Shown piece by piece: positions 19,239 through 26,599 of a DNA stretch of 52,709 nucleotides. How positions within the stretch are numbered: the stretch's first letter is position 1; each line of letters begins with the position of its first letter. The stretch comes from Oscillospiraceae bacterium (GTDB taxonomy: Bacteria > Bacillota > Clostridia > Oscillospirales > Acutalibacteraceae). The stretch covers positions 1 to 52,709 of the forward strand of contig SVPK01000001.1 of NCBI GenBank assembly GCA_015065875.1, written 5' to 3'. Both the position numbers and the translations under genes were made by a program. The notes beneath the pieces were generated by a model that was not told the DNA's origin, made no database searches, and was given only the letters and a program-made list of their open reading frames with translations.

Positions 19239-19968
19239 TTAAATGAAAAGTTTGGAAACCGTGTTTATGATAAAGCAAAGTCCTATGCCGCAAGCGGTGG
19301 GGATTATTGCCGCCGCGGCAGTCCATTTTAGACTTCCTGTTTCTTTTTTAATAGTCATAAGTGTTGTTGAACAGGGCCAATGCATTAAAGAAAAAATCAT
19401 GGTGCAAACGGCAGTTATGGGGGTCCAACCGTTTTGCAGAAATATCTCCTTGCATAGCGAAAGATTTGTTATATCGCTTAATGTTCCCTGTGATAGGTAT
19501 ATCATTATTATTATGGGAACAACTATTTCGTTGGCGGGAAAACCGAGTATAAAAGCGAGTAAAATTGTTCCATCGAGCCCAATTTGTTTGCCAAATGGGT
19601 CTAGAAAATCGGCAGTTATATTTAAAAGTGAGGAATCGCCGATGCTAATGTTGGCGAGTAACCATATCAGTATTCCGGCAGGGGCGGCAACTGCGGCAGC
19701 GCGGCCGAGGACAAAGAGTGTTCGGTCGAAAACAGAGCGAATGATTATTTTACCTATTTGCGGCGGCCTATATGGCGGCAGTTCAAGGGTGAATGAAGAA
19801 GGAACACCCTTTAAAATTGTCGCCGAGAGTAACCGTGTTACTATGAGGGTTGTTATTATTCCCAAGAGTATTATTGTTGTAAGCAAAAGTGTTGATAAAA
19901 GGGAAGAGGTAAAGCCCGCCGCGGCTCCGATAAAGAACATTGTTATAATTGATATTAGTGTTGGGAAA
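19239..19968 (-). CDS. feoB: feoB 3-prime segment (C-terminal membrane part), separated from its 5-prime segment by the inserted element
   Basis: The frame is open from the junction and reads FPTLISIITMFFIGAAAGF...ELPPYRPP...GFPANEIV. The track ORF starts at the internal ATG at 19940. There is no RBS or start of its own. Confidence 0.9.
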
Positions 19969-19998
19969 GCACAACAAAACTATGGCAAAAAAATATTA
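19969..19998. repeat. Left terminal inverted repeat of the element (attL inner arm)
   Basis: GCACAACAAAACTATGGCAAAAAAATATTA. The 18-nt TATGGCAAAAAAATATTA (19981-19998) is the exact reverse complement of 25157-25174. Confidence 0.9.
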
Positions 19999-23596: not shown

Positions 23597-24913
23597 ATGC
23601 AAAACGAAAATATTTTTATTTGTGAAAACATAGGGGTTGCTGATAACGGTAATTTATCCTTTGCGGGTCAGGATACCGTTATGCTCGCGAAAAAATACGG
23701 AACCCCGCTTTACTTAATGGATGAAGACCGTATAAGAAAAATTTGCCGCACCTATATTGGCGCCGTAAAAAAAGCCTTTGGTGATAATGGTAAGGTAATG
23801 TATGCTTCAAAGGCATCATCCTTTAAGAGAATATATGAAATTATGCTCGAAGAGGGAATGAATATCGATGTTGTTTCCTGCGGCGAGATATATACGGCCT
23901 ATAGCGCGGGATATCCGCTTTCAAACGCATATTTTCATTCCAATAACAAGACCGATGAAGACATTGCCTTTGCAATGGATAAGGGTGTTGGCTATTTTGT
24001 TGTTGATAATGAGGAAGAATTGTATGCAATCGATACCGAAGCCCGCAAAAGGGGAATAAAACAGTCGATTCTCCTTCGCATAACCCCCGGAATCGACCCC
24101 CATACATTTGAGGCGGTTGCAACAGGAAAGGTCGATTCAAAATTTGGTTCGGCCATTGAAACAGGACAGGCAGAGCAAATGGTTGAAATAGCTCTCTCGC
24201 TTGAGGGTATCGAGTTATCGGGCTTCCATTGTCATGTAGGTTCGCAGGTGTTTGATTCGGATGTTTTCCTGCGTTCGGCCGATGTTATGCTTGATTTTAT
24301 TCTTGATATAAAGAATAAGTTTGGATATGTTGCAAAACAACTTGACCTCGGCGGCGGATTTGGAGTTCGTTATCTTGCATCCGACCCTGTATATTCGCTT
24401 GAGGATGTTATCTCGGAAATTGGCGATTTTGTTAATAAAAAGGTTGCAGAGCTTGGCATTGAATTGCCGATTATAGGCTTTGAGCCCGGCCGAAGCATAG
24501 TTGCCGACGCGGGAATGACACTTTATTCGGTTGGAACCGTTAAAAAGATACCTGAATTTATAAATTATGTATCGGTTGACGGCGGTATGACCGATAATAT
24601 TAGGTATGCGCTTTATGGTGCAGCATATACTCTTACTCTGGCTAACAAGGCTACAGAAAACCATAATATGCTTTGTTCGGTGGTTGGTCGTTGTTGCGAG
24701 AGCGGAGATATTATTCAAGAAAATGTTTATATGCCTGATTCCGTAACCCGTGGCGATTATCTCGCTTGTATGACTACCGGCGCATATCATTACTCTATGG
24801 CCTCTAATTATAATAGAATTGGCCGCCCTCCGATTGTTATGCTTCGCGAGGGAACCTCGTATCTCGCTGTTCGACGCGAGACTGTTGAAAATTTAATCTC
24901 TCTCGATATATGA
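23597..24913 (+). CDS. lysA: Diaminopimelate decarboxylase
   Basis: PLP-fold ODC/DapDC family. FHCHVGSQ, LDLGGGFGV, GRCCESGD and GAYHYSMASNYN motifs. Confidence 0.92.
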   Translation: MQNENIFICENIGVADNGNLSFAGQDTVMLAKKYGTPLYLMDEDRIRKICRTYIGAVKKAFGDNGKVMYASKASSFKRIYEIMLEEGMNIDVVSCGEIYTAYSAGYPLSNAYFHSNNKTDEDIAFAMDKGVGYFVVDNEEELYAIDTEARKRGIKQSILLRITPGIDPHTFEAVATGKVDSKFGSAIETGQAEQMVEIALSLEGIELSGFHCHVGSQVFDSDVFLRSADVMLDFILDIKNKFGYVAKQLDLGGGFGVRYLASDPVYSLEDVISEIGDFVNKKVAELGIELPIIGFEPGRSIVADAGMTLYSVGTVKKIPEFINYVSVDGGMTDNIRYALYGAAYTLTLANKATENHNMLCSVVGRCCESGDIIQENVYMPDSVTRGDYLACMTTGAYHYSMASNYNRIGRPPIVMLREGTSYLAVRRETVENLISLDI

Positions 24914-26599
24914 AAAGACTCCCGAGCTTCGGCTTGGGGTCTTTTCGTCTATTTTTGCATATAGTATTTTGAGGTGGTATAAAATGCCTAAAAAAAGGAT
25001 AGGAGAGGTTAATATATGTTTTGGAGAGTTGGATACTTCGGAGATTTCGGCGCGAGCAGGGGAGATTTTAAGGGAAATTATCGAAGATAAGGTTTTAGAC
25101 GGAGAAATCGAAGAAACGGATGTTAGAAACATTGCTAAAGAATTAGAGCAAAGGGATAATATTTTTTTGCCATAGCTTTGTTGCGGTAAACGACCATTAC
25201 ATGGAACAAAATTGTTGGTTAAAATCGCAAGCATTCTCTCGCGTGGAGAATCGATAATTCTGCAACCAACAATCCCTGCGGCATTGCAACCAAACCCCAT
25301 ACACATGGTTAACGCCTGCTTGCCGCAGGCTTTGCATTTCTTAAATGGCTTATCAAGATTATAGGCAATTCGGGGTAGATAGCCTATATCCTCAAGCAGT
25401 GTGAAAAGCGGGAAAAAGATAGCCATCGGCGGTAGCATAACGGCAACAACCCAAAATAGCACCCGAAACATTCCATCAACCAACATTCCACGTAGCCATT
25501 CGGGCGCGGAAATATTTATAAGAAGGGCATCGATTTTAGATTCAATAAGTCCGAATAGGTTGTTAAGCAGTTCGCTTGGGTAATTTGCTCCGCTTATTGT
25601 TATCCAAAAAATAATACCTAAAAATAGGAGCATAACGGGATAACCGATAAGCCTGCCGGTTAGGAATTTATCAATCCTTCGGTCCGAATAATTATAACCT
25701 TTATCAGTAATTTTAGTTGCGCTTTTAGCAATCTGCTCTGCCGCAGTTATGATAGAACTGATAACTAAATCCTCGATTTTTTCGCGGTCAAGCCCCTGTG
25801 ATAAAAATTCGCTCTTTATTTTTGAGAGCTCGAGAGATATATTTTCGTTGCCAACGATATCTTTAGATAAGAATTTTGTGCATTCGTTAATCGATTGCTC
25901 ATCTGAAGCAATCAGTCGTAATGCTAACCAACGGTTACTGATTTTACCCTCTGTTATGGGCTCTAAAAGCGGAACCAGTTGTTCTATGGCATTTTCGATT
26001 GCATCCGAATATCTAACCCTAAAGGGTGATGAAAGCCGTTCTGTGGAGAAAAATTCATCAAGCTTTTCGATTATTTTTTTTGAATCATCCTTTTTGCGCG
26101 CCGATATGCCAACGACCGGAACACCAAGACTTTGCGATAGTGCATTAATATTAATGCTAATATTCTTGCGGGCGGCTTCGTCCATAAGATTAACGCAAAC
26201 AATCGTATTTTTTGAAATTTCAAGTATCTGCAAAACAAGATTAAGATTTCGCTCAAGGCAGGTTGCATCGCAAACAACAACGGTTGCATCGGGATTTCCA
26301 AAGCATATGTATCCGCGTGCGATTTCTTCTTCCTTTGAATGAGCCAAAAGGGAATAGGTCCCGGGGATATCAACCAAAACATAATCAGAAAACTCGCCCT
26401 TACATCTGCCCGTTGTGCAGGCTATGGTTTTGCCGGGCCAGTTACCTGTGTGCTGATTCATACCCGTTAGTGCGTTGAAAACCGTGCTTTTACCAACATT
26501 TGGATTGCCCGCAAGAGCAATAACCCTATCGTTTTCACCCTGCCTTAGAACGATGCTTTTGGTTGCGTTATGTCCAACCGAATTTTTATTAAGCCCCAT
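24893..26599 (-). CDS. feoB: feoB 5-prime segment (G domain plus first membrane part); genuine FeoB sequence ends at 25188-25190, and the tail 24893-25187 is read-through into the element
   Basis: GNPNVGKST G1 motif, VDIPGTYSL, NLMD. The sequence runs up to ..ILTNNFVPCNGR, then continues as an S-rich 98-codon extension antisense to the small ORF and the lysA end. Confidence 0.9.
   Translation of the reverse strand: MGLNKNSVGHNATKSIVLRQGENDRVIALAGNPNVGKSTVFNALTGMNQHTGNWPGKTIACTTGRCKGEFSDYVLVDIPGTYSLLAHSKEEEIARGYICFGNPDATVVVCDATCLERNLNLVLQILEISKNTIVCVNLMDEAARKNISININALSQSLGVPVVGISARKKDDSKKIIEKLDEFFSTERLSSPFRVRYSDAIENAIEQLVPLLEPITEGKISNRWLALRLIASDEQSINECTKFLSKDIVGNENISLELSKIKSEFLSQGLDREKIEDLVISSIITAAEQIAKSATKITDKGYNYSDRRIDKFLTGRLIGYPVMLLFLGIIFWITISGANYPSELLNNLFGLIESKIDALLINISAPEWLRGMLVDGMFRVLFWVVAVMLPPMAIFFPLFTLLEDIGYLPRIAYNLDKPFKKCKACGKQALTMCMGFGCNAAGIVGCRIIDSPRERMLAILTNNFVPCNGRLPQQSYGKKILSLCSNSLAMFLTSVSSISPSKTLSSIISLKISPARAEISEVSNSPKHILTSPILFLGILYHLKILYAKIDEKTPSRSSGVFSYIERD
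24914..24955 (+). terminator. Terminator after lysA
   Basis: GACTCCCGAGC/GCTTGGGGTC hairpin (with G-U pairs) plus a T-rich tail. Confidence 0.7.
24984..25175 (+). CDS. 63-aa acidic protein at the right end of the element; candidate recombination directionality factor (speculative)
   Basis: ATG lies 6 nt after GAGGTGG. Translation MPKKRIGEVNICFGELDTSEISARAGEILREIIEDKVLDGEIEETDVRNIAKELEQRDNIFLP. The stop lies inside the right inverted repeat. The antisense frame looks non-coding. Confidence 0.5.
   Translation: MPKKRIGEVNICFGELDTSEISARAGEILREIIEDKVLDGEIEETDVRNIAKELEQRDNIFLP
25157..25187. repeat. Right terminal inverted repeat of the element (attR inner arm)
   Basis: TAATATTTTTTTGCCATAGCTTTGTTGCGGT. 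Its first 18 nt are the exact reverse complement of 19981-19998. The next 9 nt match 8 of 9. Confidence 0.9.

Follow-up and report, generated by a model that had tools for sequence, protein, structure and literature searches.

A lysine-operon-bearing serine recombinase element splits feoB in an Oscillospiraceae bacterium and may still be excised

We have found that the ferrous-iron transporter gene feoB is split by a 5.2-kb element in a 52,709-nucleotide stretch of DNA from an Oscillospiraceae bacterium (contig SVPK01000001.1; we refer to the whole stretch as the window and to its source species as W). The element encodes a large serine recombinase (LSR) and carries a dapA-ddh-lysA operon, and its removal in silico restores a single feoB reading frame. 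That the split gene has stayed repairable through inheritance suggests that the cell still cuts the element out and thereby switches the transporter back on. We favor, at a probability of roughly 0.6, the reading that the element is a domesticated, vertically inherited and still excisable member of an undescribed family of elements specific for feoB.

The split gene and its reconstruction

The first gene of the feoAB operon is feoA (26604-26846, minus strand; Pfam FeoA, E=3.7e-16), and feoB lies on the same strand in two pieces. The 5′ piece (25191-26599) holds codons 1-470 and ends ...NNFVPCNGR (...AILTNNFVPCNGR), and the 3′ piece (19239-19965) begins FPTLISIITMFF... (PTLISIITMFF...) and reaches its stop codon at 19239. 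The trinucleotide AAA on the plus strand, TTT in the coding sense, lies at both junctions (19966-19968 and 25188-25190). When positions 19969-25190 (5,222 bp) are removed in silico, the result is a 2,139-nt open reading frame (ORF) of 712 aa that has 0 internal stops, contains all of the FeoB Pfam domains (FeoB_N, FeoB_Cyto, Gate, FeoB_C, Gate) and matches intact FeoB proteins of 711-714 aa from end to end, with a top identity of 71%. The junction falls within the motif F[VI]PCNGRFP, which is found in 117 of 119 intact homologues. A preliminary description of this DNA had claimed two feoB pieces at these coordinates, a trinucleotide common to both junctions and an in-frame 712-aa product of excision, and all of this holds, the pieces being minus-strand ORFs at 26599-25191 and 19965-19239; the alignment to intact FeoB that it proposed as a check likewise came out as it had anticipated. 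It had also raised the possibility of a mis-joined contig. The same split recurs, however, in about 20 independent contigs from four sources (NCBI, ENA, JGI and Logan) as well as in a second species, X (GCA_017482035.1 plus seven further contigs), and therefore does not reflect an assembly error.

In X the layout, the insertion point, the TTT core and the arms of the attachment (att) sites are as in W. The ORF of the 5′ piece continues in W for 98 non-conserved codons into the element, to position 24893, and the corresponding read-through tail in X is 21 codons long and different from that of W. Between W and strain L016 the 5′ piece differs at 5 nucleotides, with 1 amino-acid change. In two further relatives, Y (GCA_054268235.1) and Z (GCA_045655625.1), gene order follows that of the window for more than 20 kb and feoB is intact; they thus provide the empty orthologous sites that the preliminary description had suggested looking for.

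Sequence comparisons indicate that the feoB pieces, the LSR and the att arms are under purifying selection while the gene is split. The ratio of non-synonymous to synonymous substitution rates (ω) for repaired feoB is 0.095 between W and X, as against 0.078 for the intact pair Y and Z, and the ratio of the non-synonymous rate (dN) of feoB to that of mnmA is equal in split-feoB and intact-feoB species. We note that L007, a relative of W at 95% nucleotide identity, also bears the element; its feoB 3′ piece differs from that of W at 19 positions, 3 of them non-synonymous (ω=0.06, binomial P=1.8e-7), and the LSR, present in both, has an ω of 0.14. The att arms, including the P′ arm, are conserved between W and X next to some 160 bp that cannot be aligned. 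Cargo proteins of W and X are 84-90% identical, flanking host proteins 65-89% and the LSRs 54%, synonymous sites being saturated in all genes. The element is present in all strains sampled from the W and X lineages.

The element, its recombinase and its relatives

The element is bounded by attL (25157-25215, minus strand, in the orientation of feoB), which consists of a B arm (25191-25215), the TTT/AAA core (25188-25190) and a P′ arm (25157-25187), and by attR (19940-19998, minus strand), which consists of a P arm (19969-19998), the core (19966-19968) and a B′ arm (19940-19965). The two sites are in direct orientation and share a short core, and their P arms form an inverted repeat, so that the ends of the element are a 27-nt inverted repeat with 96% complementarity (19972-19998 and 25157-25183); no further copy of this repeat is found in the window, where 0 would be expected by chance. 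The predicted junctions are GATATTAGTGTTGGGAAACGACCATTACATGGAAC for the repaired attB and ...TTTGCCATAGCTTTGTTGCGGTAAAGCACAACAAAACTATGGCAAA... for the attP of the circle. Judged by arm symmetry, the crossover dinucleotide would lie one base apart between sites of the W type and sites used by relatives with a 541-aa LSR. A search of the window for a second feoB attB-type site gave no match.

Next to attR lies the LSR gene (19980-21317, minus strand; 445 aa), whose product has the Resolvase, Recombinase and Zn_ribbon_recom domains and whose stop codon lies in the P arm. We note that this stop and the feoB 3′ piece share a reading frame and are separated by the stop plus five codons (window 19966-19985; L001 7590-7615), which in W and X is probably a by-product of the conserved att arm. 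Divergent from the LSR, with about 40 bp between them, is the lysine operon, all on the plus strand. Its control region (21359-21643) comprises a perfect sigma-70 promoter (TTGACA-17-TATAAT, 21359-21387), a lysine riboswitch aptamer (21390-21559; 78 bits, gathering score 30) and a leader terminator (21612-21643). There follow dapA, encoding 4-hydroxy-tetrahydrodipicolinate synthase (21696-22580; TIGR00674, 340.7 bits against a cut-off of 206), ddh, encoding meso-diaminopimelate dehydrogenase (22608-23585; TIGR01921, 418.5 bits against 180.6), lysA, encoding diaminopimelate decarboxylase (23597-24913; TIGR01048, 409.8 bits against 297.9), and a terminator-like hairpin 3′ of lysA (24920-24939). 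A 63-aa ORF (MPKKRIGEV...NIFLP; 24984-25175, plus strand) with the Shine-Dalgarno sequence GAGGTG heads toward attL and ends within the P′ arm. Beyond the LSR, the operon and this small ORF, the ORFs of the element and their Pfam matches include no phage structural, replication or lysis genes and no conjugation or replication genes. The GC content of the element is 0.40 and that of the window 0.41. What the preliminary description had pictured, a discrete LSR element with inverted-repeat ends and biosynthetic cargo in a ferrous-iron transporter gene rather than in a sporulation gene, is thus upheld by the Pfam domains, the 27-nt repeat, the equivalog scores of the three enzymes and the domains of FeoB.

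Two side observations concern the operon. Within the riboswitch terminator, on the minus strand, are sigma-70-like hexamers (ATGACA-16-TATCAT, 21614-21641), identified by consensus match only; an LSR transcript begun there would be antisense to the lysine leader over its full length, a hint that expression of the recombinase is coupled to lysine control. In strain L016 the 3′ half of lysA (L016 3020-3922) is 94.5% identical to window 23597-24913, with 8 gaps, while the feoB 5′ piece is 99.6% and the small-ORF region 100% identical to the window; a strain mosaic or an assembly chimera may explain the lysA difference.

The catalytic domain of the LSR is clear (PF00239, E=9e-33), with S13, R11, R82, R85 and R88 invariant across 52 relatives, and the protein also matches PF07508 and PF13408, the zinc-ribbon residues C338, C341, C361 and C372 being invariant as well. 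Set against its 541-aa relatives, however, the enzyme of W and of X alike is shorter by about 95 residues, the gap falling after the zinc ribbon and before the C-terminal strands. The AlphaFold model of P0011, the 541-aa relative that we used as structural reference (pLDDT 78), shows the segment absent from W as a long helical hairpin (424-447 and 453-482), and by Foldseek it matches full-length integrases of SPbeta, Bxb1, phiC31 and LI. The model of the W enzyme (pLDDT 73, with low confidence at the C-terminus) has no hairpin, and a sequence search of the PDB with the LSR gave alignments limited to the catalytic domain. Alignment and models thus indicate that W's LSR naturally lacks the coiled-coil motif, which in large serine integrases controls directionality. 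As to other identities, SCCmec Ccr and XisF are ruled out, the LSR scoring 131 against the NCBIfam equivalog for CcrB (cut-off 900) and 121.7 against that of XisF (cut-off 375). A second, independent loss of the coiled-coil was seen in P0043 (456 aa; loci L008-L013), which is 91% identical to P0011; about 60 bp before its start comes an attB-like stretch that encodes KNGRFP, and the L008-L013 contigs contain no feoB piece.

Relatives of the LSR number in the thousands at about 50-55% identity and are mostly 541 aa long. We define the feoB-targeting family as LSRs of this clade, at about 50% identity or more, that lie beside a feoB piece broken at NGR/FPT (the slash marking the break). A metagenome scan returned 80 loci, 67 of them with enough downstream sequence to judge. 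The feoB 3′ piece, with the same first residue, directly follows the LSR in 47 of these 67; another 3 of 67 have an inverted arrangement and in 2 of 67 the LSR lies just after the feoB 5′ piece, so that about 78% in all are at feoB. Loci L017 and L019, reached by other routes, have the same layout. Throughout the family the crossover codon is constant (GGN CGN TT/Y CCN, encoding NGR/FPT) and the P arm sequences are related, and in-silico excision of five complete elements (4.7-9.1 kb) yields FeoB ORFs of 708-715 aa. Family elements range from about 4.7 to 10 kb, occur in hundreds of contigs and carry varied cargo, including a family 2 glycosyltransferase (GT2) with a BclA-like collagen protein, a LytTR two-component system with ATP-binding cassette (ABC) exporters, an MmeI-type restriction-modification enzyme with a Rep protein, a multidrug and toxic compound extrusion (MATE) pump and an extracytoplasmic function (ECF) sigma factor. 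Among phage and plasmid records we found no LSR relative above 42% identity, IMG/VR holds only 2 close relatives, and full-text literature searches returned no paper that ties feoB to a serine recombinase target, in keeping with the suggestion of the preliminary description that such an element had not been reported. W's element therefore appears, from these comparisons, to be one member of a large and apparently undescribed LSR family aimed at a single stretch of feoB codons. In two of the elements (L149 6705-9176; L169 11630-14849) a GT2/tetratricopeptide-repeat glycosyltransferase lies beside a collagen-repeat protein with a BclA C-terminal domain, and the LSR is at the attL side, adjoining the small ORF; a glycosyltransferase together with a BclA-type collagen protein is cargo typical of the spore surface (exosporium).

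Elements of the family have a conserved 67-69-aa ORF beside attL that heads toward it, and the small ORFs of W and X agree with this in size, place and orientation. Profile comparison of the small ORF with the family ORF by hhalign gives P=3e-4 over 52 collinear columns; a plain hidden Markov model search and shuffling were not significant. Aligned with each other, the small ORFs of W and X agree at 34% of positions over 35 aa. Searched for across the library, the ORF has relatives of 63 aa that are 92% and 48% identical and that both end NIFLP inside the att arm; a search of PHROGs gave no match. The start region CATATAGT(A/T)TTTTGAGGTG..ATAAAATGCC, which includes GAGGTG..ATG, is conserved between W and X and places CATATAGT(A/T) 17 nt before the ATG in both. 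This CATA motif looks like a -10 element of the kind that mother-cell sigma factors use, with no -35 match alongside; it was looked for before the small ORFs of other family members and not found there, and CATATAGT apart, a search for a convincing sigma-E or sigma-K promoter gave none. The 63-aa ORF is a candidate accessory or directionality factor.

The cargo can be traced to the host. In Y the riboswitch-dapA-ddh-lysA unit sits at what we call its native locus, between a xer-like gene and bipA, and likewise in two more assemblies. A lysine riboswitch of the same kind is found ahead of the operon in X and at the native loci L021 and L022, and the operon control region is conserved between W and X. 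The same unit is common in chromosomes of related Clostridia, and none of 80 genome loci has an LSR close to it. In trees of DapA plus Ddh and of Ddh, the copies borne on elements (W, X, a further species V and one more) group together in a clade whose sister group is the native-locus copies, and in the LSR tree the W-type and X-type enzymes form one long-branched clade beside all of the 541-aa enzymes. We looked for a consistent connection of the feoB locus with the native operon locus and did not find one. These trees and loci are most simply read as one event, in which an element already resident in feoB acquired the operon of its own host, after which the combination was passed on vertically. 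We also note that in all three assemblies the neighbor at the native locus is a divergent tyrosine recombinase gene (Phage_integrase; L183 7666-8655, L181 7675-8664, L184 3401-4381).

Is the element still excised?

On the reading we favor, a resident element in the ancestor of the species group would have picked up a host promoter, the lysine riboswitch, dapA, ddh and lysA, and the recombinase of this captured-operon element would also have lost its coiled-coil motif. The LSR would pair the directly oriented att sites around TTT and release the 5.2 kb as a circle, rejoining feoB to the 712-aa gene in a subset of cells. The excised circle would be non-replicating and would probably hold the only lysine/diaminopimelate genes, so that lineages losing it would be counter-selected; excision would therefore be rare, reversible or limited to terminal cells, for example sporulating mother cells. 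We infer that the element is actually excised in response to some trigger, that its cargo is single-copy and that its enzyme acts without a canonical directionality factor. The intact feoB pieces, the catalytic residues and the att arms argue that gene, enzyme and sites are not dead.

The loss of the coiled-coil bears directly on what the enzyme can do. The integrase of the Listeria innocua prophage LI, when deprived of its coiled-coil, carries out low-level attP×attB and attL×attR recombination with no directionality factor (PMC10754689; PMC5499577), whereas deletion of the coiled-coil of phiC31 integrase abolishes its activity. Since the effects differ between these two enzymes, W's LSR may by analogy be weak and bidirectional, or may be under a new kind of control.

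Several observations weigh against an element that is still excised and has descended vertically. Given the behavior of phiC31 integrase, W's enzyme could be weak or dead. Its only canonical in-frame start is a GTG at 21317 that overlaps the Shine-Dalgarno sequence; the likely start is an ATC at 21308, 8 nt after GGAG, where X has ATG, and this non-canonical start region (21306-21320) is common to all W-type variants. One strain variant is frameshifted, and no convincing promoter for the LSR, sigma-E and sigma-K types included, was found upstream of it. No intact FeoB above 71% identity, and so no excised form, was found in a collection of 5.8 billion proteins, and a search of viral contigs and all fetched loci for the attP junction of the circle found none. 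Host markers of all five species match one another at about 82% identity and their tree is star-like, so that co-divergence of element and host is consistent with the data but unproven. Finally, in V (GCA_045659535.1, locus L182) the stretch that matches window 19222-21355, with the feoB 3′ piece, attR and the LSR, has been replaced by about 60 bp (L182 2554-2990), and the lysine operon now has a fixed place beside mnmA; the contig does not include the far end of what was once the element. V has thus lost the LSR and the feoB 3′ piece but kept the operon, so that at least one lineage can do without the switch. Its locus indicates that the operon is the part that must be kept and that the switch can be lost.

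Because the LSR gene adjoins the lysine riboswitch promoter and is read in the opposite direction, excision could follow lysine or iron status and not sporulation. We tentatively propose, as something that may well prove wrong, that the tamed element is a conditional DNA switch for a non-developmental gene, feoB, that is operated by an LSR without a coiled-coil and guarded against loss by the cell's only lysine/diaminopimelate operon, its excision possibly being tied to lysine or iron.

It is also possible, though we are inclined to doubt it, that the element is strictly skin-like and is excised in the mother cell only, by means of a small factor dependent on sigma-E or sigma-K; this would be a special case of the reading we favor, and the preliminary description had likened the layout of the element to that of the skin, spoVFB and spsM elements. 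The host lineage is probably sporulation-capable, as judged from its genes, and the organism is known from metagenome assemblies alone: the window contains spoIIGA (Peptidase_U4, E=8e-48) and then a gene for a sigma-E-like sigma factor (39469-41023), as well as a gene for a small M50 peptidase (46134-46724), and the relative Y has sipL. Excision in a terminal cell would make the loss of a carrier of essential genes safe. The small acidic ORF, with its conserved CATATAGT(A/T) upstream in W and X, finds a parallel in the small sigma-E-dependent CD1234 of the Clostridium difficile skin element (PMC5025042), which we regard as a lead and not a result, and gin in gerE is a non-phage precedent (PMC5595907); the BclA-like collagen and glycosyltransferase cargo of some family members points the same way. 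On the other hand, feoB is not a known sporulation gene, and the region upstream of feoA is conserved across W, X and Y, the last of which has an intact feoB. The CATA motif, without its -35 match and confined to W and X among the family members, is a further difficulty, and constraint on feoB equals that in intact-feoB species, which is not obviously expected for a gene used in the mother cell only.

Were the insertion instead frozen and inert, with feoB dead and the element kept for its lysine operon alone, feoB should have gained stops and frameshifts over a divergence at which synonymous sites are saturated. Both pieces are intact in W and X, at an ω of about 0.1, and the low ω of the 3′ piece (0.06, P=1.8e-7) was measured between two strains that bear the element; moreover, the LSR retains all of its catalytic residues at an ω of 0.14, and the att arms are conserved beside unalignable DNA. 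We consider an inert insertion unlikely for W and X, although V, with its LSR and feoB 3′ piece deleted and its operon kept, is exactly such an end state, and although a recombinase with neither a coiled-coil nor a canonical start codon, a frameshifted variant and the failure to see an excised form in public assemblies are what it would lead one to expect.

The wider family looks mobile, with its varied cargo, its sizes of 4.7-10 kb and its hundreds of contigs, and the W and X elements might accordingly be ordinary mobile islands that have recently and independently knocked out feoB, the conservation of which would then predate the insertions. We think this improbable. The W-type element is free of genes for transfer or replication and of phage genes, its GC content equals that of the host, and its cargo is the clade's own operon and not foreign. 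The copies in W and X have diverged as much as their hosts, and with LSRs only 54% identical there has been no recent transfer between the two; nor would recent knock-outs fit with the presence of the element in every sampled strain of both lineages or with an ω of 0.06 for the feoB 3′ piece between two carriers. Lastly, FeoB might function as two separate polypeptides with no need of excision, both pieces being conserved ORFs and the 3′ piece sharing strand and frame with the LSR that precedes it, but the break lies inside the membrane domain within a conserved motif, no Shine-Dalgarno sequence was found before the first ATG of the 3′ piece (19940 in W) in either W or X, and the tails on the 5′ piece are unrelated between them, which together make this very hard to credit.

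Elsewhere in the window, an FMN riboswitch (41382-41496) and a SAM riboswitch (42284-42365) precede metK-like genes and a gene for a membrane protein, and appear ordinary. Beside a tRNA gene (2953-3036), about 8.5 kb (3040-11540) have no counterpart in the otherwise collinear locus of Y; this region encodes secreted proteins of 465 and 1177 aa, helix-turn-helix genes, a zinc-ribbon membrane protein and a Ser/Thr-kinase-like gene, and from this content and position looks like a separate tRNA-adjacent island.

Comparison with known systems

To our knowledge, nearly all recombinase elements known to interrupt genes in Firmicutes lie in sporulation genes, among them skin, SPbeta in spsM, vfbin, vrin and gin. 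If the reading we favor is true, a recombinase clade dedicated to feoB in gut and rumen Clostridia would extend programmed rearrangement to nutrient transport, and many metagenome annotations of "truncated FeoB" would be split genes. W's branch would then represent a natural case of domestication, with an essential operon captured, an element diverging together with its host and a split gene that can still be repaired. The coiled-coil-less enzyme bears on directional control in large serine integrases, which are widely used in genome engineering, and the conserved feoB site with its matching recombinases could provide landing-pad tools for gut anaerobes that are hard to engineer.

SPbeta in spsM and "active lysogeny" switches such as phi10403S in Listeria comK are elements whose conditional and precise excision by a site-specific recombinase restores a host gene while the element is kept in the germ line. 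Both are full prophages (SPbeta with an LSR), whereas W's element has no phage genes and carries cargo for essential metabolism. The fdxN element of Anabaena heterocysts, which is 55 kb long and needs XisH and XisI besides the large serine recombinase XisF, is excised from a non-sporulation gene in a terminally differentiated cell; it is cyanobacterial, however, and XisF is not orthologous to W's LSR, as the score given above indicates. With the integrases of LI/A118, Bxb1 and phiC31 and with SprA of SPbeta, W's enzyme shares the catalytic, recombinase and zinc-ribbon domains and inverted-repeat P arms around a short core, but it lacks the coiled-coil hairpin that enforces directionality in those enzymes.

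In Bacillus subtilis, skin splits sigK and its recombinase is SpoIVCA. W's element, on the reading we favor, resembles skin in being vertically inherited and defective, and it too has an LSR at one end and splits a gene. It differs in that skin is what remains of a prophage, measures 14-48 kb, lies in the gene for a sporulation sigma factor, has kept the coiled-coil and is under demonstrated mother-cell control. In the skin element of C. difficile the recombinase CD1231 is constitutive, and CD1234, which is small, acidic, dependent on sigma-E and without database similarity, triggers excision and sets its direction and cell type (PMC5025042). The gin element in gerE of Bacillus cereus ATCC 10987 is small and non-phage and is excised specifically during sporulation by GirC with the accessory protein GirX (PMC5595907). 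Like gin, W's element is a small non-phage serine-recombinase element that interrupts a coding region, and its excision would rebuild the gene; unlike gin, which resides in a sporulation regulator, it occupies an iron transporter gene, carries housekeeping lysine cargo and encodes an LSR without a coiled-coil, and its excision is predicted.

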